From the IMG/VR virus record IMGVR_UViG_3300038468_000223, positions 1 to 64,000 of that record: 64,000 bases of DNA; one strand, given 5' to 3'. Numbering within the stretch: the first letter of the stretch is position 1; each line of letters begins with the position of its first letter. A model generated the notes under the pieces. It did not search any database and was not told the origin of the DNA. It saw only the letters and a program-made list of their open reading frames with translations. The position numbers and the translations under genes are program-made. Of this stretch, positions 3,027 through 24,664 are shown in pieces. This stretch comes from a virus.

Positions 3027-3371
3027 CTACCTCGGTACTCTTGTGAGAAGTTCGACGAACTCGCTACAGTCGGGTGGTTTCGTACTGTGATGGTCTTCAC
3101 GAAGATGACCGCAACGCGAACAAAGTTCGGTGGCGAAGACCTCCATGCGTGTTCGATACTCTTGGTCACCTCGCGAACCGTATCCGCCTTCGTCGGCCTC
3201 CCATGATCTTCCGCGTGCTTTGCAGCGCGAACCGCATCGAGGACATGCGACCTCGTTCAGCTCACATTGTGTCGGCACACGAACGTCAAAGACCAGCCCA
3301 CCGAGATCGGCCGATGACTTCGGAGGATGGAAGCAAGAGTGACATTCGAACGAGTACCAGTGATCACTCAT
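3027..3371 (-). CDS. Zn-finger hypothetical protein
   Basis: Several CxxC pairs. Confidence 0.55.
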   Translation of the reverse strand: MSDHWYSFECHSCFHPPKSSADLGGLVFDVRVPTQCELNEVACPRCGSRCKARGRSWEADEGGYGSRGDQEYRTRMEVFATELCSRCGHLREDHHSTKPPDCSEFVELLTRVPR

Positions 3372-3395
3372 GAACGTCGAGGCCCCACAGGGTGT

Positions 3396-3707
3396 TTACG
3401 CGAACGGCTCAAGGAAGGTGAGATCCTTGCCGAGTTCGGCGGCGCGGGCGATGCCGCGGCGGGTGGTCTCGCCGATGTAGCCGTTGTAGTTGACGACGAA
3501 GACCTCGCCGGCGAGCGCGACCTTCGCGAGCATCAGCTCGTCGAGCATCTCCTTCTGCACGCTGGTGATCGGCACCATGTCGACGTGGTGGAAGAAGCCC
3601 GCGACCAGCACGATCTTGCCCTTGAGGGTCTCGCGCTGCGCGATGCCAAGGTGGAACTGCTTGAACCTGGTGGAGCCGATGATCGCGACGATCGTGGGCC
3701 TGGGCAT
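3396..3707 (-). CDS. Hypothetical Rossmann-like phage protein
   Basis: IIGSTRF...VFVVNYNGYIGETT pattern, typical of DUF4406 / deoxyribosyltransferase-like proteins. Confidence 0.6.
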   Translation of the reverse strand: MPRPTIVAIIGSTRFKQFHLGIAQRETLKGKIVLVAGFFHHVDMVPITSVQKEMLDELMLAKVALAGEVFVVNYNGYIGETTRRGIARAAELGKDLTFLEPFA

Positions 3708-3895
3708 CAGGCACCTCCTTCGAGTCGCGCTTGCACGTGCGTGATCGTGGCGGACCGCACCTCGAGCCCCGCGAGCATGCGGGTGATCGTCGAGTGGGAG
3801 ATGCCGAGCTTCTTCGAGCTGTTCCTCAGCCCTTCCCTGTCGACGAGGGCTCGGAGCTTGATCTGCAGGGCCTTGGGTGTGATCGCGTCGCTCAT
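3707..3895 (-). CDS. Small helix-turn-helix regulator divergent from the cas gene
   Basis: GLRNSSKKLGISHSTITRMLAG HTH pattern. Confidence 0.7.
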   Translation of the reverse strand: MSDAITPKALQIKLRALVDREGLRNSSKKLGISHSTITRMLAGLEVRSATITHVQARLEGGA

Positions 3896-3907
3896 GTCGA
3901 TCGGAGC

Positions 3908-3950
3908 TTGACACCGTTCGTTCTAGGAGTCAACATCCGAACCGTTGACA
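3908..3950. promoter_or_regulatory. Divergent promoter/operator region
   Basis: TTGACA at 3908 and 3945; inverted repeat TTGAC-N16-GTCAA (3908-3933); CAACAT lies 17 nt after the first TTGACA. Confidence 0.5.
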
Positions 3951-3959
3951 GTCGCCGCG

Positions 3960-4135
3960 AACAAAAATCGTCTGTTGGAGGAGCCATGTCTCTGCGTACC
4001 GGGTCGACTCCACGACCTGTAGGCGAATCAGTCGAAGGACACAGCGGAGGATCTGCCGCGGAAGAGAGCCCCTCGACGCTCGCCAATCGCCCCTCTGGGG
4101 CCACTCCAACTGCCTCCCCGCAAGGGGAGTGCGGA
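3960..4135 (+). ncRNA. Candidate tracrRNA
   Basis: ACTCCAACTGCCT (4103-4115) can form 13 contiguous pairs (3 G:U) with repeat segment GGGTGGTTGGAGT and runs into a CTCCCC-GCAA-GGGGAG hairpin; hairpin GGTCG-ACTCCA-CGACC (4002-4017) has a loop complementary to repeat TGGAG; boundaries approximate. Confidence 0.6.
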
Positions 4136-5668
4136 GACGTGGCTCCTTCAGCAGACGATGAAGTCATCTGCGCCAAGTGCGGCAAGCCGCAGGTCCACAA
4201 GGACGACGGCAAGAAGCAGGAGGTCTGCTCCTGCATCAAGATCGTCCGGGCTACGACGCGGTTCCAGATCGACCTGACGTCGCTCAGCCCCAAGGCCCCG
4301 CCGGGGGCCAAGCGGCCGCTGTCGCCGGCGGAGAAGGCGCTGCGCGACGCGCTGCAGGACGTCGCCGTGCTCGCGACGACGGCGCGCAACGTCGCGATGC
4401 GCGCGAACTACGGCGCCGACTCCAAGAGCCTCGACGACTACCTCCTCGAGCACGGCGAGATGCCGCGGAAGTCTGCGGACTGGTGCACGACGAAGCTCTA
4501 CTCGTACCCGAAGATCCGCGCGGCGGTCCCTCGGCTCTCGAGCAACATCGCCGCCACGCTGCAGCGCGAGATCGATCGGAAGTGGTCGCAGGTCCGCTTC
4601 GACGTCCTCATCCGCCAGATCGACTCGTGCCCGCACTTCCGCGTCGGCCAGCCGGTGCCGGTCCCCGCATCCTCGCTCAGGATGCGCAAGCGCGAGGACG
4701 GCGCGCTCGTCCTGTCCTTCTCGCTCTACTCCGGGGCCCACGACGGCGTGAAGAGCGTCGAGGTCCCGATGATCGCGCGCGACGACCACCAGCGGGAGCT
4801 GCTGGAGAAGATCGCGACGGGCGAGTACAAGTACGGGCAGGCGATGATCGAGCGCGATCGGCTGCGGCCGTCGCGGTGGTACCTGCGCCTGGCGTACACG
4901 CGCAAGGTCCCCAAGCGCACCGAGGGGATCGTGGCCGGCGTGCATCGCGGCATCAAGACGTTCCTCTGCGCCGTCACCGCCGACGGCGAGCAGTGGCTCT
5001 ACGACGGCTACGACATCGAGGCGTACCTGAAGCAGGTGCAGCGCCGCCGGCGTCGGATCCAGAACAGCGTCGTCGCGAGCGCACGCGTCGGCCACGGGCG
5101 ACGCCGCGTGCTCACGCCGATCTCGCATCTGCAGGACAAGGCGGCGCGGTGGCGCGCGACGCGGTGCCAGGTGATCGCGCGGCGCCTGGCGCAGTGGCTC
5201 TCGGACCGCAACGTGCGGCGCGTCTACCTCGACGACTTCGTCGGCATCCGCAACGGGCTGCCCGAGCAGCTCGAGGGGGGCCAGACGACCTGGCAGCGGA
5301 TCCAGGAGTGGCCCTTCTACGAGATGCAGATGCGCTTGATCGCGTGCCTGCAGGAGTACGGCATCGAGACCGTCGTCCGGCCCGCGGCGTACATCTCGCA
5401 GCGGTGCCCCCGCTGCGGTCACGTCGCGCAGGAGAACGTCGACCTGAAGTTCTGGTGCGTGCGCTGCACGAAGTGCCGGTTCAAGAAGCACCTCGACATC
5501 AGCGCCGGCATGAACCTCATCGCGAGCGGCGAGGCGGCGTCGAAGGGCGAGCCTAGTGATTTCCTGCGGATGCAGGAGAAGATAGAGGAGGTCCGGAGGG
5601 GCGCTCGCAGAGCGAGTCGCAAGAGCACGAAATCAAAGGAGGCCGACGCGCGGGGGCGGAAGGCGTGA
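3986..5668 (+). CDS. cas12f: Cas12f-like (type V, TnpB-derived) effector with altered RuvC catalytic residues; start may be GTG 4139
   Basis: GHGRRRVLTPISHLQDKAARWR and WPFYEMQ..GIETVVRPAAYISQRCPRCG..CTKC..HLDISAGMNL match the Cas12f/TnpB layout; RuvC-I is GVHRG (D to H) and RuvC-II is YLDDF (E to D); directly abuts a CRISPR array. Confidence 0.85.
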   Translation: MSLRTGSTPRPVGESVEGHSGGSAAEESPSTLANRPSGATPTASPQGECGDVAPSADDEVICAKCGKPQVHKDDGKKQEVCSCIKIVRATTRFQIDLTSLSPKAPPGAKRPLSPAEKALRDALQDVAVLATTARNVAMRANYGADSKSLDDYLLEHGEMPRKSADWCTTKLYSYPKIRAAVPRLSSNIAATLQREIDRKWSQVRFDVLIRQIDSCPHFRVGQPVPVPASSLRMRKREDGALVLSFSLYSGAHDGVKSVEVPMIARDDHQRELLEKIATGEYKYGQAMIERDRLRPSRWYLRLAYTRKVPKRTEGIVAGVHRGIKTFLCAVTADGEQWLYDGYDIEAYLKQVQRRRRRIQNSVVASARVGHGRRRVLTPISHLQDKAARWRATRCQVIARRLAQWLSDRNVRRVYLDDFVGIRNGLPEQLEGGQTTWQRIQEWPFYEMQMRLIACLQEYGIETVVRPAAYISQRCPRCGHVAQENVDLKFWCVRCTKCRFKKHLDISAGMNLIASGEAASKGEPSDFLRMQEKIEEVRRGARRASRKSTKSKEADARGRKA

Positions 5669-7074
5669 GCGGGTGGTTGGAGTTTGGAGGCGCTGCGTGG
5701 TGGACCTCACGATCGATCCAAGGACCGGCGGAAGGCGTGAGCGGGTGGTTGGAGTTTGGAGGCCGGCGAGCGTCCAGCGGCGCGCGCTCGCGGCACGACC
5801 CCAGGCGGAAGGCGTGAGCGGGTGGTTGGAGTTTGGAGGCGTCACGAGGCGCCGCAACGTCTCATCACTGGCGCGGGGGCGGAAGGCGTGAGCGGGTGGT
5901 TGGAGTTTGGAGGGGAAACTAGGAGGTCCCCCCCGAACGGAGGCGGAAGGCGTGAGCGGGTGGTTGGAGTTTGGGAGGTGGTGCGCGAGCCGAAAGAACG
6001 CTTCGCTGACGTGCGGCGGAAGGCGTGAGCGGGTGGTTGGAGTTTGGAGGCACTTGCTCGTGAGCGCGTCGACGAGCCCTTCCGGGCGGAAGGCGTGAGC
6101 GGGTGGTTGGAGTTTGGAGGCAGGCGTCTTGGCCGCACTGGGACTCTTGGCGGAAGGCGTGAGCGGGGTGGTTGGAGTTTGGAGGATGGCGTACACCGAC
6201 GAGGAACTGAGCGAGATCTAGGCGGAAGGCGTGAGCGGGTGGTTGGAGCTTGGAGGATCGCCCGCGTCCGCGCGCGGCGGAAGGCGTGAGCGGGTGGTTG
6301 GAGTTTGGAGGGACTGACGCCGCATCACCGCTCTGGGGTTGTGGCGCAGACGGAAAGCGGGAAGGCGTGAGCGGGTGGTTGGAGTTTGGAGGGTCGAGAA
6401 GCTCCCTGCGTTCTATGTGAACCCGACGAGACGGAAGGCGTTGGAGTTTGGAGGATGGCCAAGGGAAAGAACCAGCACGTCGTCCCCCAGACGGAAGGCG
6501 TGAGCGGGTGGTTGGAGTTTGGAGGTCTTTGCGCGTCCGCCCGAGCACATGTCGATGGCCGAGACGGAAGGCGTGAGCGGGTGGTTGGAGTTTGGAGGAA
6601 CTCCTCGCGGCGCCGTGCAAGCTCGGCCGGCGTGAACGGGTGGTTGGAGGTTTGGAGGGCCGCCGGGCGCTATGCGTCGCGCTCGCGACGTCCGAGCCGG
6701 CGAAGGGCGTGAGCGGGTGGTTGGAGTTGGGAGGATGTGGATCCTCCGACGACGGCGGGGTGGCGTTCATCCGCGCCCGCGCCGGGCGGAAGTCGTGGTT
6801 GGAGTTTGGAGTGGAGTGGAGGATCGCCTTCGTGCGATGGCGTAAGTGGGGGAGTTTGCTTGGCGGAGGGAGGGAACGTTGGAGCTGGAGGAGCGTGACG
6901 GCGTCGACGCCGCAGTGGAGGGCGGGTGGTTGGAGTTTGAAGGCACGGTGGCGTTCATCCGCGCCCGCGCCGGGCGGAAGGCGTGAGTGGGTGGTTGGAG
7001 TTGGAGGCTCGACGACGGATGGCTGCCGAAGCACCCGCGGCGGAAGGCGTGAGCGGGTGGTTGGAGTTTGGAGG
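5655..7074 (+). CRISPR. CRISPR array, repeat GGCGGAAGGCGTGAGCGGGTGGTTGGAGTTTGGAGG (36 bp), about 20-22 repeats
   Basis: Near-exact repeats start at 5655, 5727, 5804, 5878, 5942, 6015, 6085, 6149, 6221, 6276, 6490, 6563, 6973 and 7039; degenerate or deleted copies near 6357, 6430 and 6625-6945; unique spacers of about 19-50 nt. Confidence 0.95.
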
Positions 7075-7139: not shown

Positions 7140-7433
7140 ATGAGCGAGAACATGCGTACTACATGGGTCGCCAGAGACGTGCAGGCCGGTTGCTTCGCCT
7201 GCTACGGCTTCGAGGCGCACTGGTTTGGTGGAAACGCACAAGGTGTCGCAGCTCGCCACCATGATGCAACCGGCCATGAGACTTGGTGCGATGTCGCAAT
7301 GTCGATCCGATATGGTGGCGACGGCTCAACCGCCTCACACCAAGAAGCGCCCCCGGGATCGCGCCCCACGTTGAACAAGGTGAACCGCAGATCGACCGGC
7401 CGGAGCGGAAGTAAGAGAACGACGCGTGTATAA
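7140..7433 (+). CDS. Hypothetical protein
   Basis: ATG at 7140; CxxC and HH..GH pattern. Confidence 0.55.
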   Translation: MSENMRTTWVARDVQAGCFACYGFEAHWFGGNAQGVAARHHDATGHETWCDVAMSIRYGGDGSTASHQEAPPGSRPTLNKVNRRSTGRSGSKRTTRV

Positions 7434-7482
7434 TACACGTCGCCGCAGTTGGAGGGAGGCGGAGGTTCCGCGTGCCCCAGGA

Positions 7483-7510
7483 GGTGGGGCTAATGTATAT
7501 TAGAGGTCGA
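7483..7510 (+). other. dif-like recombination site
   Basis: GGTGGGGCTAA-TGTATA-TTAGAGGTCGA compared with E. coli dif GGTGCGCATAA-TGTATA-TTATGTTAAAT; 17 bp upstream of a tyrosine recombinase. Confidence 0.55.
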
Positions 7511-7527
7511 AAGGAAGTGCTCGCACG

Positions 7528-8520
7528 ATGAAGCCCGCCGATCTCGCCCTCGCCGCCCTCTCCGGACCCGAGGCTCCGCTCGCGCCGCTCGAGGCGACGC
7601 GCGCGGACCAGAACCCGGTCTTGGTCTACCTGGCCGGCCGCAAGAGCGAGCGCACGCGCCAGACCATGCGCCAGGGCCTCGAGCGGCTCGCGCGCGCCGG
7701 CGGTTGGGCGAAGTACCCCGTCGAGGCCATCCCCTGGCACCAGATGACGTTCGCGCACACCGACGCGCTGCGAGCGGCGCTCACCCGGCAGGTCTCGCAG
7801 TCGACCGTGGCGCTGTCGCTCGCGGCGCTGCGCGGCGTGTCCAAGACCGCCTGGAAGCTCGGCCTCGTGACCTACGAGCAGCACGCGCGCGCGACGGCGT
7901 GGGACCTCGGTGGGACCCCAGACCGCCTCCCTGCCGGACGCGAGATCTCGCCGCCGGAGATCGTCAAGCTCCAGGCCTACTGCACGGCACAGCCGACGCC
8001 GTACGGCGAATTTCTCAGCGGGATCTTCGCGGTGCTCTTCGGCGCCGGCATGCGCGCGCACGAGCCCGGAGGGCTCACGATCGACGCCTACGATCCGGAT
8101 GAGCACTCGGTGCGCTTCGTGCGCAAGGGGCGCAAGCAGGCCGAGATCCCGCTGGGCGGCGCCGAGGCGGCCGCGCTCGAGGCCTGGATCGCGGTCCGCC
8201 GCACGCTCGACGTGCCCGCGACGTGGCTCTTCCCGCGCGTGCAGCGCAACGGCATCGTGCGCGCCCAGCCGATCACGAACAAGGGGCTCTGGCACCTCTG
8301 CAAGGCGATCGGCGAGGCGGCGAGCATCCGCGAGTTCAGCCCGCACGACACGCGCCGAACGTACTGCACGCGCCTGCTCAGCTCGGGGCTCGACCTGGCG
8401 ACGGCGCAGCGCCTCATGAGCCACTCGAGCCCGGCGACCACGGTCCGCTACGACAAGCGGCAGGCGCGCGCCGACGCCGAAGCGCGGCAGCGCGTGACGA
8501 TCTGGGGAGGTGAAGGATGA
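7528..8520 (+). CDS. Tyrosine recombinase (Xer/Cre-like resolvase or integrase)
   Basis: Catalytic R (GMRAHE), K (RKG), HDTRR, MSH and Y (TTVRYD). Confidence 0.92.
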   Translation: MKPADLALAALSGPEAPLAPLEATRADQNPVLVYLAGRKSERTRQTMRQGLERLARAGGWAKYPVEAIPWHQMTFAHTDALRAALTRQVSQSTVALSLAALRGVSKTAWKLGLVTYEQHARATAWDLGGTPDRLPAGREISPPEIVKLQAYCTAQPTPYGEFLSGIFAVLFGAGMRAHEPGGLTIDAYDPDEHSVRFVRKGRKQAEIPLGGAEAAALEAWIAVRRTLDVPATWLFPRVQRNGIVRAQPITNKGLWHLCKAIGEAASIREFSPHDTRRTYCTRLLSSGLDLATAQRLMSHSSPATTVRYDKRQARADAEARQRVTIWGGEG

Positions 8521-9197
8521 ACTGTCCGATCTGGAAACGGACGGCGGATGGTGCGACCGTCAGTCGATGCTGCCTACGCCTGCCCGACGGCAAGACGTGC
8601 CCTCGACATGGCGACGTTTCCGCCGCCGTCGAGACGTTCAGCCAGACAGGTCAGTTGACCGAGGAGGGGACGCTCAACAAGAGCGTCGAGGCGGCGATCC
8701 ACCTCGTCATGGGCTACGGTGGTCCGTTCGAAAAGACTGCAATCGCCGGGCTTCGCAGCCTCATCGGCTCCAACAACTCCAGCTTCGTCGCCCGGCTCAA
8801 AGAACAACTTCGACCCCACGGCATCGAAATCATCACAGCCACACTGGGGCGCGTTGAAGGGCGACAGGCGTGGGTGCTCTCGATGAAGCTCCCGAACGGT
8901 CACGTCACGACGATCGACGCCGTACTCGAGCCGGCCAAGGACCCGTTTTCTTGCGACGCCGAGATCGCCGATCGCGTCGTGATGCACGTGCTCGGCCGCA
9001 GGCGTTCCGCGCCAACGCACGGTGTCCCGTCGGACGCGATCCACCTCGAGCTGTCGCCCGTCGAAGCCGCCACGCTCCGCGCGGCGCTCGACATGATGCA
9101 GCGCCACCCATTTTCACGGGATTTCAGAGTTCTGGTCGACGATCACGGCCCCAACATCCTGGCGCGGATCGCCGGGCGCCTCCGAAGCCGGTCATGA
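8517..9197 (+). CDS. Hypothetical protein
   Basis: Coupled to the recombinase stop (ATGA overlap). Confidence 0.6.
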   Translation: MNCPIWKRTADGATVSRCCLRLPDGKTCPRHGDVSAAVETFSQTGQLTEEGTLNKSVEAAIHLVMGYGGPFEKTAIAGLRSLIGSNNSSFVARLKEQLRPHGIEIITATLGRVEGRQAWVLSMKLPNGHVTTIDAVLEPAKDPFSCDAEIADRVVMHVLGRRRSAPTHGVPSDAIHLELSPVEAATLRAALDMMQRHPFSRDFRVLVDDHGPNILARIAGRLRSRS

Positions 9198-9792
9198 CCG
9201 CACTCGCGTTCTACGTCGCCGGCGTGGGCCTCTCGCTGGCGTTTCTCCTCGCACGCTACCGCGAGGCGCCGTGGGTCGGCGCGCTCCTGGCACTGGTCTG
9301 GCCGCTGACGCTGGCGTTAGGCTTGATCGTCGTGATGGGCAACGACCGGCGGAACGACGAGGGGCACTGATGGCGGGGACCGCGGGCCCCACGATTCCGT
9401 GGGGGCTGCATTTGGAATGGGGGGCGACGGTCCAGCCGTTCGGGACGACGGCGGGAACGGCGACGATCTACGTCTATCAGGCCTCGCGGCAACGGCTCGG
9501 CGACGAATTCGATCGGCTCCTCAGCGACTTCGACCGGGCCGTCGAGCGATCACTGCCGGCGCGCCGGCGCCGCGATCCGCTGACGCACCAGGCGGTTTCG
9601 GAGCCGACGTGCGGGCCGCCGATCGTGCCGCACTCCGTGGTCCCCGTCGCACTCTGCGACGCCCGGCTCGATCCGCGGCCCGCGGCGCCGCGGGAGCGGC
9701 CCGCAGACCGCTTCGCCAGGCTCGCTCGCCCCCACGGGCGCGAGCGTCGACCCGAGCGCGGGACGCGGCGCCTTCGCGCCGTCGCCCGCTAG

Positions 9793-9860
9793 CCTCGCGG
9801 CCCGCGGCCGGCGCTCGCCTCGCGGCCCGCGGCCGGCGCTCGCCTCGCGACCCGCCGGCG
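9793..9860. repeat. Short tandem repeat, about 25-bp unit (gcctcgcggcccgcggccggcgctc)
   Basis: Two full copies plus one partial copy. Confidence 0.7.
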
Positions 9861-10599
9861 CCCGGCACTACCAGTGGACCCCCGACGTTCGTCGGTCCAC
9901 ATTGGTGCGCGTTCGTGCGTTTCGCTCACGACCGTCGACAGTGGCTTTTTGAGGCCTTTCCTAGATAGTTCTGAGCGTGATCTGACATGCATCTAAGCCC
10001 CCTTTCGTGCGACGCCTACCGCGATTACCCGCGAACGCCTTCCGGTATGGGGCGCGTCGAAAGGGTCCGGGTCACCTGATCGGGCACATCCAAACCCTTC
10101 CAGTAGAATCCGCACCAAGCGGCCTCATCAATAGATTGCGCTACGGTAGAGCTTGGCGCCCGGCCGCGCGGGCGCGCCGGGGGGCGCCCGGACGCCCCCA
10201 CGGCGGCGCTAGGACGCCCCAGGATGCGCCCGGGGCGCCGAGTACAGGCGCCCGGGCGTCCGGGCGCCCCCTCGCCCGTCCTAGCCCGTCCAGCCGCTAA
10301 CTACGCGGAATCATTGAGCTTTTTTGGTGCGTACTTGGGTGCGCTAGGGCGCGTAAGGACCTACGCGGTCGTGATCTAATGATTTCGCGTACTTAGCGGA
10401 TCGCGCCCGCGTAGACCCTTGCGCACCCTAGCGTAACCCCGCGAAACTACACGCGCCCCACGTTGGCGCGCCGCCTGCAACGGCGGGGGTTGCGCTGGCA
10501 AATAGCCGGCGCTTCCAGGGCCCCGCGGTCGCACGCGGGCGCGCCACCCTGGCGACCGGCGGGAACCGCGCACAAGCGCGCGGACGGGCCCGCACTAGA

Positions 10600-11335
10600 C
10601 CGGCCCACCTGAGAGGGCGACGAGAGAAGTAGCGCTCGCACGCACAAGGAATCGGACGATCTCCGACGGAAATTAGACGCGCGAAACCGGCGCGTCGAAA
10701 GTACGGGATCCCAAGGGATAGACGTACACCGCGGAGTGAGCGGCACCGAAACTGAGGACAAGGATCGTGCTCCGCACGATCGAAGTCTAAGCGACTAGGT
10801 CAAGCACGTTGAACGCGTGCGGATCGATCGCGAGGCGAGTAGAGCGCGAAATCATCTCGGAATGTCGCTGAGCCTTCATAGGGCGATGAAGCTTGAACGC
10901 GCTGGGTAGGGTGCGAGGCCGGAGAGATCGATCGTCAACGTTTACGCCAGGATCGATCCAAAGCTAGGGGAGTTCTCCCTGAAAGCTTCACGAAGCGAGA
11001 TATGAAACGTTCGTGTCACCTTGGCAAGGGCTGCGACCGTTACAAGTCGTATAGAACGAACGCGGAGTATCTCAGCGCTGTTGAGCGGCAAGCCTACGAC
11101 CTAAACTCTAGGCTTGTTCGTGGCGAAGGAAGGGATTGTAAACTCTGCGAATCCGTGCGAGTAGTCGTTCATCTAGATCGTCCCTGGTAGGGTCCGATAG
11201 AGTTTGGACGGCGAAACCGCGGCGAGAAGCAACGCAAGACACTTGAGCCGAATCGTCCGTGTATGCGCGACGGTTCGGCTCGTGTCGAGCGATGCGAGAA
11301 GCGGCCGATGCTATCGACCGCTTCTCGCATCGTTC
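10600..11335 (+). ncRNA. Putative large structured ncRNA
   Basis: No credible ORF; more than 15 back-to-back stems; ends in a ~23-bp near-perfect hairpin (11287-11335); boundaries approximate. Confidence 0.5.
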
Positions 11336-11753
11336 AGTCGGTGTGAAAGGGGAACCTAGTCACGCATCGTTCTAGAGCGGCTCGTATGCCGCGAGAACGA
11401 TCGATAGGTAACAGTCGGATACGGGAAAGCAAATCATCCGGAAAATGCACGGGATGACGCCCGAAACGCGGTCGACGCCTCGGCACTGGAGACGTCCTTC
11501 GACGTCGCGGCGACGATCGCGGCGCTCGAAGCGTCGATCGACGCCATCCGCAGGGGCGACGGCTCGAAGGCGGCCGATCGCGCGGGCGAGGCGTTCGCGC
11601 GCCTCGCGTTCTTTCACCGCTAGCCCTCCGGGCGAGCCGTGAGGCTCGCCCGTCGAAAAGGGCCCTCGACTTGAGCATCCACACCTCGCGCGGCTCACGC
11701 GGGGATTCATTGTGGAAGGGTCGAGGGCCCTTTTCGACGAAAGGGGAACACAC

Positions 11754-12392
11754 ATGGATATCAAGTGCGTTCGCTGTGGCGAGCCGTGGGACGCCTACGG
11801 CGTCGCCCACGGCGACATGCTGCCGTGGGAGGCTGCGCTGTTCAAGCGAGGGGCGGGCTGCCCCTCGTGCGAGGGCAAGTCGAACGGTTGGGAGCCCCAG
11901 ACGATCGACGACGTCGAGAACGGCGACGGCGATCCCATGGAGCGTATCGCCGCACACGAGAATGGCGCCGCCATCGCGTGGAAGCGCCCGGCGGATCCCG
12001 TGCACTGGACGTGCGACGGGTGTGGCGTCGAGGTAGTCACGGACCTCGACACGAACGAGCTAGAGTACCGCGTGCCGTTCGGTGCGAAGTGCCGCCAGTG
12101 GTACGCGTCACACCGATTCGACCGCGGCGCTCCGGAGAAAGAGCCGGCGCACGTATTCGGCGAGTGGAAGGTGTGCGAGTTCTGCCTGGATCGGTGTGCC
12201 GATTGCGGGACCGAGATCTCGACTCACCTGGAGTTCGGCGATCCGTACGCCGACGGGTATGCTTTTCCGCAGCCCGGCTCCTACACCGACTCGGTGTGCA
12301 CCGACTGCTTCGAGCAGTATTGCTCGGAATGCGAATCGCGCGAGTGCTCGTGCGGCTCGTGCCTTGCGGCCGACGACGACGACGCAGACTGA
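11754..12392 (+). CDS. Cys-rich (multi Zn-finger) hypothetical protein
   Basis: Strong RBS; CVRCGEPWD and many CxxC pairs. Confidence 0.75.
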   Translation: MDIKCVRCGEPWDAYGVAHGDMLPWEAALFKRGAGCPSCEGKSNGWEPQTIDDVENGDGDPMERIAAHENGAAIAWKRPADPVHWTCDGCGVEVVTDLDTNELEYRVPFGAKCRQWYASHRFDRGAPEKEPAHVFGEWKVCEFCLDRCADCGTEISTHLEFGDPYADGYAFPQPGSYTDSVCTDCFEQYCSECESRECSCGSCLAADDDDAD

Positions 12393-12551
12393 TCACTTGG
12401 GCGAGGCGAGTCACGAGGCTCGCCCGTCGAAGGCGGGACACGAGAGATGACGTTCGTCGATCCGAGCTACGACGCGAGACGTTCTAGCTCCGCACGAAGC
12501 GAACCTCTCACATTCTCTCGTGTCTCGCCTTCGGCGAAAGGGGAATGAACC

Positions 12552-12677
12552 ATGCTCAAGTTCAAGCGCAAGCTGGCGTTCAAGCTGGTGTGCAAGTGCG
12601 GCACGTGTGGCCACAAGGTCGGCCGCAAGCGCGGTCAGTGCCGCGACCCGTTCGACTGCTTGGGGGCGTCGTCGTGA
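12552..12677 (+). CDS. Small basic Cys-containing peptide
   Basis: MLKFKRKLAFKLVCKCGTCGHK... follows an AAAGGGG RBS. Confidence 0.5.
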   Translation: MLKFKRKLAFKLVCKCGTCGHKVGRKRGQCRDPFDCLGASS

Positions 12678-12982
12678 GACGGAACAACCACGTCGAGCGC
12701 GACAACGAGACCTTCAGCGCGGAGGCGTACACCGTCCGCCGTCACGGCGGCGTCGCGTGGCGCGTGCTCGGTTGGGAAACCGAGCCCGACGAGGACACCG
12801 AATGGTCGGGCGTCGAGAATCGAACCGGCCGCGTCGTCGCGCACATGGTCGGCGATGACGCGCGCTTCACGTTCGATCCGGAGGACCTCACGCCGATCAA
12901 GCGCGAGGACTACTGCGGCGAGTGTGGCCAGATCGGGTGCACGCACGACGGCCTCGATCGCGACGACGACGACGAGACCTAG
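12674..12982 (+). CDS. Hypothetical phage protein
   Basis: GTG overlaps the upstream stop; MVGDD..EDYCGECGQIGC. Confidence 0.65.
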   Translation: MRRNNHVERDNETFSAEAYTVRRHGGVAWRVLGWETEPDEDTEWSGVENRTGRVVAHMVGDDARFTFDPEDLTPIKREDYCGECGQIGCTHDGLDRDDDDET

Positions 12983-13089
12983 ACCGACGGCGAGGGCCCC
13001 CAAGCCCTCGCCCGTCGAAAGAGTCTCGCGAGCTAGACCAAACGCCTCGGGGCGGGCTCGCGGGTCTCTTTCGACGAAAGGGGAACATC

Positions 13090-13362
13090 ATGTCGAAAGA
13101 AGAGAGGCACGAGGTCTCGCCGGAAAACGCCGCGAAGTTTCGCGATTGGATCGCGAGGCGCGGAGGCGTCGCCGTCTGGCATAGTATCAACCTGTCCAAC
13201 ATCGGCGCGTCGTGGAGCACCCCCGCCCTCCGAGAGGACGGGACCCCCACGCCCAAGCCGACGTGGGAGGCCGACGACAAGCCGGCGAATCCTGGCGCAG
13301 CCGAACGGCGGGATCTCCGACGTCGGGCGCGCGTCGTTCGACGAAGTCCTCGCGGCGACTGA
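13090..13362 (+). CDS. Hypothetical protein, probably truncated by deletion
   Basis: Strong RBS; 3' part runs into an out-of-frame fragment of another gene. Confidence 0.55.
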   Translation: MSKEERHEVSPENAAKFRDWIARRGGVAVWHSINLSNIGASWSTPALREDGTPTPKPTWEADDKPANPGAAERRDLRRRARVVRRSPRGD

Positions 13363-13606
13363 GGAGCTACACGCGGAGCCCGGCTCGGGGCGTCTGATCG
13401 CCGCGGTGCTCGACGCGTACGAGAACGCGCCGGGCGCGCGCGCGGGGACGGCCTACGGGCTGATCCAAGGCGTCACCTATTACGAGACGCACCTCCGCGG
13501 CCGCTCGGCGGCTGATCGCTACGTCAACCGCCTGACCGCCGTCAAGGACGACGCGCTCTTGATCGAGACGGTGCTCGACGAGCTGAAGATCAGCCGCGCC
13601 GCGTGA
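13285..13606 (+). pseudogene. C-terminal fragment of a DUF932/DUF945-like protein
   Basis: GTAYGLIQGVTYYETH resembles the DUF932 GTAWG..NAVT.Y..H motif; no proper start. Confidence 0.5.
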
Positions 13607-13725
13607 CGTTCCGCCGGGCGAGCCGCGAGGGCTCGCCCGTCGAAACAGGCTTCCGAGCGTGACGCGAGTCACGTTCCACCCTCTAGCGCCGCTCGGGGGC
13701 CTATTTCGACGAAAGGGGAACGAGC

Positions 13726-13962
13726 ATGATGGCTCTTTTGCGAGAATTGCGAGAACTCTACTCGGTGGTGTACAGCAACACCGAGTCGTTCGAGGTCGAC
13801 GACATCGGAGCCGACCTAGCGTATCTGATGGGCGCCATCGTCTCCGACGACGTCTGCACCTGGCCGGCCGATCGGCCGTTGGTCTTGATTCTCAAGGCGC
13901 ATTTCCAGCCGAGCCACGAGGTGTGGCGGTACGTGCGCCTCGAAGGAGGAGAACCAAAATGA
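13726..13962 (+). CDS. Hypothetical protein
   Basis: Follows a repeat element and RBS. Confidence 0.65.
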   Translation: MMALLRELRELYSVVYSNTESFEVDDIGADLAYLMGAIVSDDVCTWPADRPLVLILKAHFQPSHEVWRYVRLEGGEPK

Positions 13963-14339
13963 AGGTCACGATCGAAAGCACGGTCGATCCGACTTGGATC
14001 GACTACCTCCTCAAGAGGCCCGATATCTTCGGGGCCCCCTACCACGCCGGCTACTGGCTCGGCGCGATCCTCTACCACCCCGACAGGGGGTGGCTGGTGT
14101 GAGAGCACGAGGACCGGCGCGTCGACCGCACCGATCGGCGCCACCGAGCCGCGATCAAGGCCTGGGAGGCGGGCGAGCCCCTTCCGAAGGGCTACTACCG
14201 CCTCGACGAAGCTGCGGCCGCCCGCGCGTGGGTGGAGGGCGTCAAGCGGTGGGGGGAGTCGTGGTACGTCGACGGCGACGGGCCGCGCTACGACGTCGCC
14301 GTCCAGCTCGCCCTGCTCGGCGAGGAGCGCTACGGGTGA
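13959..14339 (+). pseudogene. Hypothetical gene with in-frame TGA at 14100-14102
   Basis: Coding-like sequence continues in frame (GWLV*EHEDRR...LLGEERYG). Confidence 0.6.
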
Positions 14340-14536
14340 ACCGCCGGGCGAGCCGAGAGGGCTCGCCCGTCGAAGGCGGGACACGAGAGCTGAACGTCGA
14401 GGCTTCACTGTTGGTGCTCCGAGCCAGCGGGCTCGGGGGCCCTAGCGACCCTCGGGGCGGCGGCCGTCCGGCCCTCGTTCCCTCCTCCCCGCCGCCGCGG
14501 GGGTCGCTAGGGCTCTTCAAACCAAAGGGGACGACA

Positions 14537-15133
14537 ATGAAACGAGAGCGAATCAAGAACCTGTCGTGTGCCTCGATCGACGTGAAGCCGATCGACTACG
14601 ACTGGTCCGACGAGAACCACCCGTACGGCGAGGCGTGGGACTTCTGGGAGGCCGGGGACTGCACGAAGTGCGGCAAGTACGCCGTGGTCTCCTCGTCCGA
14701 CGAGACGCACTCCGACGTCGATGACGAGTCGGAGTGCGACGGGACCATCCAGGCGAACGTCGACGGCCCCATGAATAGCTACTACTACCCGCTCCCCGGC
14801 CTCGTCCGCGACGACGCGCTCAAGATCGCGCACCTCCCGCTCTGCATCGTCGAGGTCGACGGCGAGACGGGTCTCGCCCTCACCGGCGGCGGGATGGACC
14901 TCTCGTGGGAGATCTGCGAGGCGTTCATGCTCCTCGGCGAACTCCCGCCGCTGCACTTCGCGGACCTGCCCGGGATGGCGGGGCGCGGGACGTCCGAGCG
15001 CGATCGATGGATCATCGCCGGGTGCCTCCAGTCGTGCGCCGTCGCGGTGGGGTGGGCGCGGTCGCGGGCGAAGCGACTGCGCGAGACGGCCAAGCACGCG
15101 CGCGAGGCTCTCCAGAAGAAAGGGAAGGCTTGA
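14537..15133 (+). CDS. Hypothetical phage protein
   Basis: RBS AAAGGGG; LALTGGGMDLSWEICEAF. Confidence 0.7.
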   Translation: MKRERIKNLSCASIDVKPIDYDWSDENHPYGEAWDFWEAGDCTKCGKYAVVSSSDETHSDVDDESECDGTIQANVDGPMNSYYYPLPGLVRDDALKIAHLPLCIVEVDGETGLALTGGGMDLSWEICEAFMLLGELPPLHFADLPGMAGRGTSERDRWIIAGCLQSCAVAVGWARSRAKRLRETAKHAREALQKKGKA

Positions 15134-15134
15134 G

Positions 15135-15572
15135 ATGAGAACCATCCTCGTCAGCATCACCAAGACCGTCGCCGTCGAAGTGCCCGACGAGTCGTGGGTC
15201 ACCGCCAGCTTGATCGCGCGCATCGCGCGGTGGAAGCTCGACGACACGACGGACGGCCGTCGGCCGTTCTCGACGGAGTTGATCGAGGATGGGGTGTCGC
15301 GTGGCGTGGACTACGCCGTCGACGAGACGGTGTTCCACCTGATAGCGAACCTGCCGAGGTACCGTCGAGGTCGAGGTGAGAACCTCGACGAGCGCAACGC
15401 CCTGGTCGAGAAGGAATGCGCTGCGATCAAGCGGCGGCCGATCTACGGCCTGGAGATCCGCGCCTTCGACGGCGTCGGCGACGAAGGGATCTGCCGCGCG
15501 TGCGGCATGCTGTCGCGCACCGAGCCGGCGGACGACGGTCTGGTACGCTGCAATCAGTGCGGGATGCACTGA
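15135..15572 (+). CDS. Hypothetical protein
   Basis: Operon context; C-terminal CxxC pairs. Confidence 0.6.
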   Translation: MRTILVSITKTVAVEVPDESWVTASLIARIARWKLDDTTDGRRPFSTELIEDGVSRGVDYAVDETVFHLIANLPRYRRGRGENLDERNALVEKECAAIKRRPIYGLEIRAFDGVGDEGICRACGMLSRTEPADDGLVRCNQCGMH

Positions 15573-15849
15573 GGGGGACCTCATGGGCAAGGAGACCAAG
15601 GAAATGGAAACGGTCAAGGATCGGTTCAACGTCATCCAAATTACGAACGGCGGGCTCGTCGACCACGGGTCGCGCCCCGGACGCGAGCAGCCGGACTGGT
15701 CGATCCACACGTAGCCCTCGTCAGGCGAGCCGCGAGGCTCGCCCGTCGAAGAGGCCCCGTGAACGCTTGCGAGCCGCGCGGTCGTTCCCCCCGCGCGCGG
15801 CCCGCTTGCCCGAGCGCTCACGAGGCCTCTTCGACGAAGGAGGTAGGGC

Positions 15850-16335
15850 ATGGACAACGAGAAGGACATTCAAGCCGCCAAAACCCGGCTGGAGGACGCC
15901 GTGAGCGCCGTCGCCACGGCGGCGCAGTGTCTCCAACAGATCGAGGGGGTGCGCATCAAAGAGGGCGCGCTCGTCGACCTGGAGGACTGGAAGGAGCTTC
16001 AGGAGGCGCTGGCCGAGTGGCGCGCCGCTACGCAGCACTTCCTCGCGACCGCGTTGGAGGCCGGCCGCGGGCCCGAGATCGGAGACATCATCGCCGTACG
16101 TCGTCGAGCTGGTCTCGTCGCCGCCCATGGTGGGCAGAAGTTCTACGTCTCCTGCGGCGGCGACCCGAGTGTGGGCATCCCCGGTCAACAGGCCGAGGTG
16201 CTCCTCTGGGTCGACCCTCACGACTCGGAGGCGATTCCCTTCGTGAAGGAGCAGCTCGCCTCGGCGTTCACGGCGATCTGGGACGAACGCGTGATGGTGC
16301 TGACCGAAGAGGAATTCAAGGCCGACATCGCGTAG
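15850..16335 (+). CDS. Hypothetical protein
   Basis: RBS AAGGAGG after repeat element 6. Confidence 0.7.
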   Translation: MDNEKDIQAAKTRLEDAVSAVATAAQCLQQIEGVRIKEGALVDLEDWKELQEALAEWRAATQHFLATALEAGRGPEIGDIIAVRRRAGLVAAHGGQKFYVSCGGDPSVGIPGQQAEVLLWVDPHDSEAIPFVKEQLASAFTAIWDERVMVLTEEEFKADIA

Positions 16336-16346
16336 CGACGTCGCGG

Positions 16347-16380
16347 GCCGCCCCCGTCCCACGAAAGGGACGGGGGCGGC
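16347..16380 (+). terminator. GC-rich hairpin (terminator or processing stem)
   Basis: GCCGCCCCCGTCCC / GGGACGGGGGCGGC; no U-tract; a similar hairpin lies at about 17495-17524. Confidence 0.4.
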
Positions 16381-16438
16381 ACGGGATGCCGGTGCATCTC
16401 GGAGGAGCGACACGGAGTCGCACCTCGAAAGGATCACG

Positions 16439-17482
16439 ATGGAACAACTGAAGATCGTCTGCGACGTCCCCAAGGACGTCGCGGCGCGAGCCGGTAGCTC
16501 GCGATACGGGACGGTGACCTTCGCCGTCGAGGACGCACACCTGGCCGAGCTGTCGGCCGACGAGCGCGCCGCCTTGTGCAGGTTCACCAGCTACTCGCCG
16601 CTGGCGATCCCCCAGTGCAAGGGGTCCCCCCTCGACTGGGAGACGGTGCGCGACGCGCTGCGGGCGACCCTCGCGACGGACGAGGAGCGCCGCTCGCGCG
16701 AGAAGCGCGAGAACGAGGAGCGCCGCGAGCGCGCGGTGACCAAGGCGCTCGCCAAGCCCCTCGGGGACTGGATCGGGCGCGGAAGTCGGGACTTCGTCCT
16801 CCACAACGGACAGTACGCCGAGACCGGCGTCCGGGAGTGGGAGCCCGAACTCAAAGACTTCCCCGGTTGGGAAGGCGACGACGCCGTCAAAAGCGACCCG
16901 CGCATCAAGGCGCGGCGCGCCGAGCTGGAGCCCGCGTTCCGCGAGCTTCACTCCGCGTGGGAGAAGCGGTACGCCGCGTGGGAGGCGGCGGTCGCGGAGG
17001 CCCGCGCCGAGGTCCAGGCCAGGACCGAGCGCTACGCGCGGCTCTGCCGCGAGTACGTCATCGGGCACGTTGACGAGTACAAGCGCGCGGCGTGCCTCGG
17101 CAAGAAGGTCAACGCCGTGGCCGAGCGGCACGCGACCAAGGCGCTCAACGAGCGCCTGCTGGTCGTGCAGCAGAGGCGCCTGCCGGACGTCGACCGGCTG
17201 CCGCTCCACGGCTCGGAGGAGGAGCAGCCCGCGCCACACCAGACGGCGTACGAGGTCTACGACGAGGTGTCGCAGGCGCTCAGGCACTTCGAGTGCCCCC
17301 TCATCGCAGGCTGGTCGGCGAGCATCATCCGGCGTCGCAACAGGTCCCGCACGCGGACGTGCGTGCAGGTCGAGATCCGGTGGGTCGACGACGAGGTGTC
17401 ACACTTGTGGGTCTACGCCGACGCGGCGCCGCCGCCCGATCGGTTCTTCGACGAACCGGCCGACGTCGACGACGACGAGTAG
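16439..17482 (+). CDS. Hypothetical coiled-coil protein
   Basis: 347-aa ORF with typical codon usage. Confidence 0.7.
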   Translation: MEQLKIVCDVPKDVAARAGSSRYGTVTFAVEDAHLAELSADERAALCRFTSYSPLAIPQCKGSPLDWETVRDALRATLATDEERRSREKRENEERRERAVTKALAKPLGDWIGRGSRDFVLHNGQYAETGVREWEPELKDFPGWEGDDAVKSDPRIKARRAELEPAFRELHSAWEKRYAAWEAAVAEARAEVQARTERYARLCREYVIGHVDEYKRAACLGKKVNAVAERHATKALNERLLVVQQRRLPDVDRLPLHGSEEEQPAPHQTAYEVYDEVSQALRHFECPLIAGWSASIIRRRNRSRTRTCVQVEIRWVDDEVSHLWVYADAAPPPDRFFDEPADVDDDE

Positions 17483-17556
17483 CGACCTCGCGGTCCGCCC
17501 CCTCCCGGAGCAGGGAGGGGGCGGGACGAGTGGCCGGTACAAAGGAGGATGACAAG

Positions 17557-20723: not shown

Positions 20724-21752
20724 GGAGGATCGACGTTCGAAAGCAGCACACGAGCGGACCTTGTGCGAGTCCAGGACGGGCAAGCGGTTCGGGGTCATGC
20801 CCGCACACGTGTCGCGCCGCACGCTCGTGCGCTGCTTCCGAACGTCGACGAGGAGGAGAAGATGACGATCAACATCCGGGAGTGCGAGCCCGATTGGGTC
20901 GAGGTGCAGTGATCATGAAAGAGAAGCTCGATCGCATCGTTGCTGTGGGTCCTCTCGTCAGCGAAAAGCGACGTCTCGTTCTTCGCGAGACCGAGACCGG
21001 CTTGAGCACCGGGACGCTCGGTCCGGTCCAACAAGGCAAACCGATGGTCGAGGGCGCCGAGCTTCTCGACATCGACTACAAGACCGGCTGCGTGACGGTG
21101 CTCTACCGCCACGGGCCCGCGCAGGTCGCCACCAAGGCGTACCGCAACGGTTGGGATGCCGTCTTCGGCAAGGAGAAGGAATGACGACCTCCAAGTGCCC
21201 GCACGGCCGCACCGTCGGTAAGACCGACGGCGGCACGTTCGTGTGTCTCAAGTGCCTCGGTGTCGACGAGGAGCGTCGCCGCGTCGCCGGCGTGCTCGAC
21301 GCCGCGAAGCGCCTCCTCCTCGCCGCGAAGGTCCGCGGCAACCGCGTGGAGGTGCCCGGCGAGAACCTCAACGCGCTCGTGACCGCGATCAAGACGTACG
21401 AGGCCCCGCCCGAACGTCGGGGTCCCACCGAGGGTGGCGGGTGAGGCTCGCGGGCCTGGTCGCGGCCGACTTCTCGATCAAGATCAAGTTCAAGCCGGCG
21501 GCGGGTCTCTCCGTCGCCGACATCAGGGCTTTGATCCGAGTACGTGCGGCACAAGAAAGCAAGGGCCGGCCGATGCCGTTCGAGCTGGTCGTGCTATGCA
21601 CGTCGGCTCGAGAGACGCCTGTCAAGACCTGGGAGAGTCTCGTCCGTCGAAAGTTGTTGACGGGAAGCCGATCCGTTCGGCTCACCAGGAAGGGCCGCAA
21701 AAAGCTCGACGAAGTTCTCGGGGTGCTCGTCAGTGGTTGAACCATGCACCCC

Positions 21753-24476: not shown

Positions 24477-24493
24477 ACGAAAGGGGAAAGTAC

Positions 24494-24664
24494 ATGGAGT
24501 GGTTCACCGTCGACAAGGAGGGGCTCGCCCAGCTCCTCGCTCGCAGGGGGAAGGTCTTCGCCCTCTACGAGCTGATCCAGAACGCGTGGGACACGAACGC
24601 CAAGCACGTCTGCGTGGATCTTCATCCGAGCGCGGGCCGCCCCCTGGTGGAGGTAGAGGCATGA
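24494..24664 (+). pseudogene. N-terminal fragment of a GHKL (HSP90/MORC-like) ATPase
   Basis: ALYELIQNAWD N-box, then a stop after 56 aa. Confidence 0.6.

Follow-up and report, generated by a model that had tools for sequence, protein, structure and literature searches.

A repeated two-hairpin element with compensating stems in front of genes of an uncultivated phage

Hairpins that punctuate early operons are known from bacteriophage T7, and repeats that are associated with start codons or that bound gene cassettes are known from mycobacteriophages and T4-type phages. The signals of the T7 early region (R0.3, R0.5, R1, R1.1 and R1.3) are repeated hairpins that lie after the leader and between cistrons, with a helix of about two turns that adjoins the next ribosome site; the upstream message keeps a hairpin as its 3′ end. 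The early precursor of ∼7000 nucleotides (nt) has five such RNase III signals, and the ideal substrate of the E. coli enzyme is 22 bp in length (PMC3867540). In Cluster K mycobacteriophages a block containing a Shine-Dalgarno (SD) sequence is placed at the start codon (SAS; 13 bp, GGGATAGGAGCCC) and is preceded in ESAS by inverted repeats with a variable spacer; they are found in one orientation within the non-structural half of a genome of high GC content, and their sequence is lineage-specific (PMC3203893). The PeSLs of T4-type phages are repeated intergenic stem-loops that flank ORFans in a plastic region, act as crossover points and occur as chimeric copies (PMC2839356, PMC4122927). Lastly, the attC sites of integrons are imperfect palindromes with conserved ends around a variable interior, separating promoterless cassettes in one orientation. 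Here we analyse the first 64,000 nt (the window) of the IMG/VR virus record IMGVR_UViG_3300038468_000223, in which an array between 11.6 and 15.9 kb contains five complete copies and one chimeric copy of an element made of two abutting hairpins, all on the + strand. This is a real, uncatalogued structured repeat, confined as far as is visible to one uncultivated phage. The principle behind it is already known from T7, the Cluster K mycobacteriophages and the T4-type phages, and nothing is overturned by it.

The copies share a common layout: a stop codon, 6–11 nt, hairpin 1, the long hairpin, the SD block GAAAGGGGAAC and an ATG. Hairpin 1 (GGCGAGCC-loop-GGCTCGCC) is conserved and GC-rich, with a stem of 8–9 bp. 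The long hairpin abuts it with no base between them, opening with CGTCGAA and closing with TTCGACG; it is 64–112 nt in total with a variable top, and the spacer between the arms is 22–66 nt. The lower stems of 20–23 bp are in register across the five complete copies and contain no bulges, and their interruptions range from none to one or two isolated mismatches, the positions of which differ between copies. In all the complete copies the ATG lies 13–15 nt past the end of the helix, and the SD sequence between the two is unpaired. Every copy is intergenic and on the strand of the genes, with fixed distances to the stop codon, the SD sequence and the ATG. A first-pass annotation of the window had recognized six copies; all six sites are present on the + strand, of which five are complete while the fifth in the array (copy 5) has hairpin 1 and a 5′ arm only. 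The pairs of arms that it quoted are exact, with 20 nt that are 100% complementary at 11651–11670/11720–11739 and 23 nt that are 91% complementary at 12425–12447/12514–12536. It had also described the loops of hairpin 1 as often GNRA. This is strictly so in two copies (GTGA and GCGA), whereas two have a 5-nt GNRAG loop, one has ACGA and one CCCCAA.

The core sequence GCTCGCCCGTCGAA is found on the + strand at 11644, 12418, 13006 (with one mismatch), 13631, 14361 and 15737. Allowing up to two mismatches there are 11 occurrences where 3.35 would be expected. At the 3′ end, five of the six sites carry TTCGACGAAAGGGGAA or a near match to it, and this sequence occurs 6 times against an expectation of 0.36. 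A further exact match to GCTCGCCCGTCGAA at 39007 lies inside a coding sequence and has no hairpin, and was rejected as a chance occurrence.

Each complete copy folds with a z score of −6.0 to −9.8 relative to dinucleotide shuffles, none of 200 shuffles being as good. When the five complete copies are aligned with MAFFT, 96.7% of the lower-stem cells are paired, compared with 34–52% when the partner strand is slid, and 8 of the 18 aligned pairs are altered on both sides; the covariation score was reached by none of 500 shuffles. The fixed ends and compensating interiors that had been noticed at first reading are thus borne out. Positions 1–7, 11, 18 and 19 of the stem are invariant in the five copies, while positions 8–10, 12–14, 16, 17 and 20–22 vary with compensation, and pairing is kept over 15 variable positions. 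Hairpin 1 covaries too, copy 3 having two flipped base pairs plus an added one. RNAalifold returns both helices of the element unaided.

A covariance model (R1) was built from the five complete copies. Run over the whole genome it recovers the six sites, at 27–140 bits, and the next best match (20730–20848) scores ∼15 bits. Over the window no Rfam family matches the element at its gathering score, ribozymes and REP-like and terminator-like entries included, and the best weak hits in 10500–16500 are unrelated and far below threshold. In three relatives, the complete records of which were scanned, the model gave no significant match. When IMG/VR was searched for exact 15-mers and 17-mers, the outcome was either no hit or a lone hit attributable to chance; a gapped scan of IMG/VR for both stem ends gave 7 loci, a number to be expected by chance, and none of these scored above 17 bits with the model. 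The earlier proposal of a new, uncatalogued cis-RNA family is therefore supported at the level of sequence by the covariation, the fixed orientation, the fixed spacing to the ribosome site and the lack of an Rfam hit. With a stem base that is fixed and an interior that is free to vary, the element could readily be proposed as a new RNA family.

The complete copies differ in detail. Copy 1 (11630–11756) has hairpin 1 at 11630–11651 with a GTGA loop and the long hairpin at 11651–11739, with a lower stem of ∼22 bp and a structured top; it is followed by an SD sequence at 11740–11749 and the ATG at 11754 of a 212-residue cysteine-rich protein (139.8 bits, z −9.8). In copy 2 (12404–12554) hairpin 1 contains a U:G pair and has an ACGA loop, and the long hairpin (12425–12536) has a lower stem of 23 bp. 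Its SD sequence and the ATG at 12552 serve a 41-residue open reading frame (ORF), followed by one of 102 residues that overlaps it at GTGA (110.7 bits, z −7.4). The upper stem of hairpin 1 of copy 3 (12990–13092) is GGC/GCC in place of the usual CC/GG, closed by the CCCCAA loop; the long hairpin (13013–13076), SD sequence and ATG (13090) follow (79.3 bits, z −6.1). Copy 4 (13616–13728) has a 5-nt loop in hairpin 1, the long hairpin at 13638–13711, an SD sequence and an ATG at 13726 (113.3 bits, z −6.0). Copy 6 (15723–15852) has a GCGA loop in hairpin 1 and the long hairpin at 15744–15836, and ends with a variant SD sequence GAAGGAGG and an ATG at 15850 (107.6 bits, z −8.2).

We consider the chances to be about even that the element acts as an RNA module between the cistrons of a polycistronic transcript, comprising a cutting-site helix, a 3′-protective hairpin and an exposed ribosome site. 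The pairing, the two-turn length, the fixed orientation and spacing, the wobble bias and the absence of promoter and terminator signals are all predicted by such a module. A perfect helix of 22 bp is a textbook substrate of bacterial RNase III. Each module would fold in the transcript into two abutting helices, the fold itself being backed by the folding and covariation analysis. The long helix of 20–23 bp, corresponding to two A-form turns, would be a cutting site for the RNase III of the host, and cleavage would yield separate messages, each carrying one to three genes. Hairpin 1 would then remain as the 3′ end of the upstream message and block exonucleases, while the downstream message would start a few bases ahead of an unpaired consensus SD sequence. 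The invariant cores GCTCGCCCGTCGAA and TTCGACGAAAGGGGAAC could have a second role, or side effect, as short patches of homology for the exchange, duplication and truncation of cassettes. Host enzymes would act, since no gene for RNase III and none for a T7-type RNA polymerase was found in the phage; the latter is a weak blank, as control genomes also gave no match. If this is correct, a long early message in a genome of 67% GC would be punctuated in modular fashion by a stop codon, a protective hairpin, a two-turn cutting helix and an exposed ribosome site. The same short conserved blocks would then serve both RNA function and the exchange of gene cassettes in a plastic, ORFan-rich part of the genome, and the element could double as a natural 'insulator' part.

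The array operon is most likely read by the host polymerase as one long + strand transcript. There is no promoter-like site in or between the copies, and the top of copy 3 measures no more than 22 nt, both of which fit with this; no sigma-70-like promoter sites were found in 9500–17000, although the sigma-70 consensus may not be that of the host. It is plausible that the genes form an accessory operon, of early type to judge from their position. Assuming such a polycistronic transcript, the long hairpin lies between cistrons and next to the downstream ribosome site, and its stem comprises about two A-form turns in five copies, as in T7. The first interruption of the helix occurs at the variable top, and there is no internal loop. 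By contrast with the T7 signals, to which there is no sequence relation, the element has a large structured top in place of the T7 internal loop with its cut on one strand, the long hairpin is preceded by a second, conserved one, and the base of the stem is invariant while its interior varies; cleavage here is a prediction.

A number of observations weigh against an RNase III module. The internal loop of the T7 sites goes with a single-strand cut, whereas the helices here are perfect. To our knowledge RNase III requires no conserved stem base, so the invariant 7-bp base and the junction ask for a further explanation. The mismatches had been described as mostly G:U on the + strand, and the count agrees (9 G:U against 3 C.A and 1 U.U), but the bias is weak (one-sided p ∼0.07) and is opposed by a seventh long hairpin further downstream that has A.C mismatches on the + strand. 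In addition copy 6 folds better on the − strand. The covariation will partly reflect the way in which the copies were acquired, because there are only five sequences and these come from one genome. A sequence-specific factor might account for the invariant cores, as might gene conversion or exchange between copies. A very unlikely proposal is that the invariant junction (the 3′ arm of hairpin 1, the 7-bp base and the SD sequence) could be the site of a dedicated factor that recognizes both sequence and structure, either a phage-encoded RNA-binding protein or nuclease that switches the entire array at once, or a structure-specific recombination system for the capture and shuffling of cassettes that acts on folded DNA and is unrelated to integrons.

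Could the hairpins instead be transcription signals? Hairpin 1 might be a terminator or attenuator without a U-tract, or a hairpin-type or phage-polymerase promoter, or the palindromes might be repressor operators. We regard this as highly improbable. Hairpin 1 is indeed a GC-rich stem of 8–9 bp right behind each stop codon, and a near-perfect palindrome of the size of an operator. However, no T-run follows it and it is not called in a terminator scan. No T7-type polymerase was found, nor a giant ORF of N4 type, the largest ORF being that of the 1076-residue DNA polymerase. As to operators, the flipped pairs of copy 3 and the U:G pair of copy 2 keep the pairing yet change or break the half-sites of the DNA; the U:G pair is A.C on the other strand, and would break the palindrome there. 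A promoter in the top of the long hairpin was also considered, with a TGA[AC][CG]-like word at the top of the 5′ arm, and rejected; there is no consistent −10 sequence, and copy 3 has too short a top. We also rejected a conserved small ORF running across hairpin 1, since the reading frame is not the same from copy to copy. Self-targeting by the CRISPR array of the phage was likewise rejected, no spacer matching the elements.

The array was compared with loci from viral, metagenome and genome collections that carry a homologue of the 212-residue protein encoded downstream of copy 1 (11754–12392); these are relatives other than the closest ones, the contigs of P0002 (77% identity) and P0105. The protein has ∼17 conserved cysteine residues in CxxC pairs and belongs to no Pfam family. 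It has at least 65 metagenome homologues, on phage-like contigs of 29–66% GC, and is often encoded by the first gene behind a hairpin; from its sequence it appears to be a widespread, uncharacterised phage zinc-finger protein. Hits in metagenome-assembled genomes are scattered (Phycisphaerae, Chloroflexi, Kiloniellales and others), and there is no match in GenBank phages either to this protein or to the DUF932-type tail described below. Out of ∼18 window proteins tested, only the 212-residue protein has counterparts in the relative loci, plus a 198-residue protein in one locus; so few are shared that the array must be highly mosaic.

The element was found in none of the relative loci examined. 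Long hairpins of other kinds lie in relatives directly before the homologous gene or before early genes, and to judge from their sequences several relatives carry different, analogous repeats of their own. In the locus L062 the sequence GCTGTAACCATG precedes four gene starts in the module region 7290–9700, and in two of them it forms the 3′ base of a hairpin whose interior is different but compensating. In L085 a hairpin of 41 nt that ends 2 nt before the ATG occurs three times (3186–4290). The modules of these relatives stand ahead of small genes. L061 has a short motif, TGAAGGGGTCGCCGCG, in three copies after stop codons at 6878, 7927 and 12521, and in a relative of 35% GC a hairpin of ∼30 bp abuts AGGAGG ahead of the gene for the 212-residue homologue.

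In both L062 and L085 the SD-like bases are located within the 3′ arm of the hairpin. This is one of the observations that would suit an element that is not cut but acts in translation, in the manner of SAS and ESAS: a rigid helix would keep the ribosome site open in a message of 67% GC, or would bind a factor that coordinates translation of the array. We think this quite unlikely. The fixed spacing of helix, SD sequence and ATG is in its favour, as are the invariant junction and stem base, which suggest sequence-specific recognition; moreover ESAS, too, consist of inverted repeats around a variable spacer, lie immediately upstream of an SD-containing repeat and vary from subcluster to subcluster (PMC3203893). 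But in this phage the SD sequence is not sequestered, and it is not obvious what hairpin 1, placed behind the stop codon, would do in initiation. Furthermore, while the ribosome site follows immediately upon the stem in every complete copy, as the first-pass annotation had it, the block GAAAGGGGAAC is the general ribosome site of the phage rather than specific to the element; it is present without the element at 24479 (after the tmRNA gene), 51026, 68673 and elsewhere. By the definitions of SAS and ESAS (PMC3203893, PMC12699233) the element is neither. The SAS sequence is absent here, its place being taken by GAAAGGGGAAC. ESAS arms are 17 bp of conserved sequence with a spacer of 4–13 bp, compared with 20–23 bp, of which 7 bp are fixed, and a spacer of 22–66 nt in the element. 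The comparison is limited in any case, since the function of ESAS is itself unknown.

There are traces of recombination in the array, and there is evidence for the suggestion that the elements stand at recombination boundaries. Copy 5 (14346–14539) is a chimera, matched by the model at 27.5 bits in its 5′ part only. Its hairpin 1 and 5 nt of flank are of copy-4 type and its 5′ arm is of copy-2 type (each 97% over 34 nt), with the crossover falling in an invariant 14-mer that the two share. There is no 3′ arm; past GAGAG come a small hairpin and an unrelated 25-bp hairpin (14439–14513), then an SD sequence and the start codon (ATG at 14537). At the end of the non-coding leader that precedes the array there is an orphan relative of the element (11287–11355, + strand), in which a 23-bp hairpin is followed by GAAAGGGGAAC without a start codon. 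Breakpoints thus lie at block edges, at the orphan SD sequence (11345) and in the arm of copy 5. Together with the chimeric nature of copy 5 this indicates that exchange between copies has happened.

Three of the roughly dozen ORFs of the array, in which third-position GC content gives clear reading frames, are damaged, in keeping with the earlier remark that truncated and fused remnants lie between the copies. The first, at 11405–11623 (+), precedes copy 1, and has a strong third-position GC signal with no in-frame ATG, GTG or TTG. The second (13090–13606, +) is a fusion. An N-terminal ORF of 66 codons starts at ATG 13090, and from ∼13289 the +1 frame encodes a start-less C-terminal tail of DUF932 type that is unrelated to it. 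Decoding by a four-base-codon tRNA does not account for this change of frame, as CTAA is absent at that point. The tail (13289–13606) is 70% identical to a stand-alone protein of 114 residues (P0066) and matches the last 60–80 residues of DUF932 proteins of 300–380 residues. These homologues were found by an exhaustive HMMER search, an earlier search for longer homologues having given nothing. The third, at 13959–14339 (+), is a gene of 126 codons interrupted by an in-frame TGA at 14100–14102, a position occupied by Trp or Tyr in eleven full-length homologues (128–143 residues). Elsewhere in the array TGA serves as an ordinary stop codon, and the one here is either a fresh nonsense mutation or a site of local read-through. 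The remnants are real, because the assembly depth is 42 and there are no variants at the damaged places.

All of this would also be expected of a regulatory-cassette or recombination linker of the PeSL kind, the main evolutionary role of which would be that of a portable boundary at the DNA level for the swapping of unrelated small genes by homologous recombination between copies, the RNA fold being a by-product in the form of a terminator or attenuator. PeSLs in T4-type phages behave in exactly this way (PMC2839356, PMC4122927), and only one of the ∼12 array genes is common to any relative. The order of cassettes in relatives, raised at first reading as a point of comparison, does vary: L062 and L085 have three genes in common in different order, each bounded by the repeat of the phage that carries it. 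We judge such a linker unlikely nevertheless. PeSLs hold a strong sigma-70 promoter and an effective terminator, and the promoter is one of their defining parts, whereas no promoter-like site was found in the element. Recombination needs the conserved blocks only, leaving the compensation over 15 positions, the length of 20–23 bp and the U:G pairs unexplained. Nor were variants, joints or alternative arrangements found at the elements in the DNA runs of the two wetland metagenomes that contain the phage, one being the probable source sample and the second having an identical phage at low depth; none of the runs on record as RNA contains this DNA.

The same traces, a chimeric site and gene remnants within a one-directional array of promoterless ORFan cassettes, recall an integron, and the first-pass annotation had drawn the analogy with attC sites. 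The elements would then be sites folded in single-stranded DNA and belonging to an integron-like capture system, served by the Xer-like tyrosine recombinase at 7528–8520, 3 kb upstream of the array on the same strand. Conserved ends surround a variable palindromic interior of 64–112 nt, similar in length to that of attC. The analogy fails on closer comparison, and the chance of its being correct is remote. The ends CGTCGAA/TTCGACG depart from the R-box consensus RYYYAAC/GTTRRRY, the lower stems lack conserved extrahelical bases, and there is no dedicated IntI integrase; the recombinase scores 37.2 bits on TIGR02249 (cut-off 265) and 33 bits on NF011946 (cut-off 435), and its best matches are the XerC/XerD models. 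In addition the conserved unit includes hairpin 1 and the SD sequence, which are absent from attC sites, and the relatives keep no recombinase beside their arrays. No relatives of this recombinase were found in IMG/VR by a search for close relatives.

Long hairpins with large tops are restricted to 9.6–21 kb of the 105-kb genome. The seventh long hairpin mentioned above (20730–20864, + strand), with a stem of 27 bp and 65 nt between the arms, is a distant relative of the element. It starts right behind a stop codon and adjoins an SD sequence (GAGGAGGAG) but has no hairpin 1 (15.1 bits, z −4.7). The ATG that follows this strong SD sequence opens an ORF of only 16 codons (20862–20912), perhaps for a leader peptide or perhaps one more remnant; the next clear gene begins near 21151.

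The source record is an IMG/VR virus record of 105,511 bp with direct terminal repeats and 67% GC, from a wetland metagenome. Most proteins match neither PHROG nor Pfam. Genes that can be recognised include those for a Cas12f/TnpB-like protein, an SNF2 helicase, a D12 methylase, a primase-polymerase, ThyX, a UvrD helicase and a family A DNA polymerase. The array region is preceded by a hairpin-rich, non-coding leader of ∼2 kb. At its start are three tandem repeats of 25 nt (CGCT[AC]GCCTCGCGGCCCGCGGCCGG; 9787–9861), followed by nested GC palindromes at 10155–10285; these repeats and palindromes may be regulatory or origin-like sites. Between the gene for a 145-residue protein and copy 6 there is an ORF of 43 codons (15583–15714) with its own SD sequence (GAGGGGGA), for which third-position GC content supports a coding function. 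Downstream of copy 6 the punctuation of the operon switches to very GC-rich hairpins of 14 bp without T-runs, at 16336–16391 and 17479–17540. The only Rfam matches in the window at gathering score are one tmRNA and two tRNAs. The consensus SD sequence GAAAGGGGAA and its ATG (24479–24496) begin 3 nt past the 3′ end of the tmRNA gene, so that the tmRNA may be transcribed together with an mRNA and then cut out of it.

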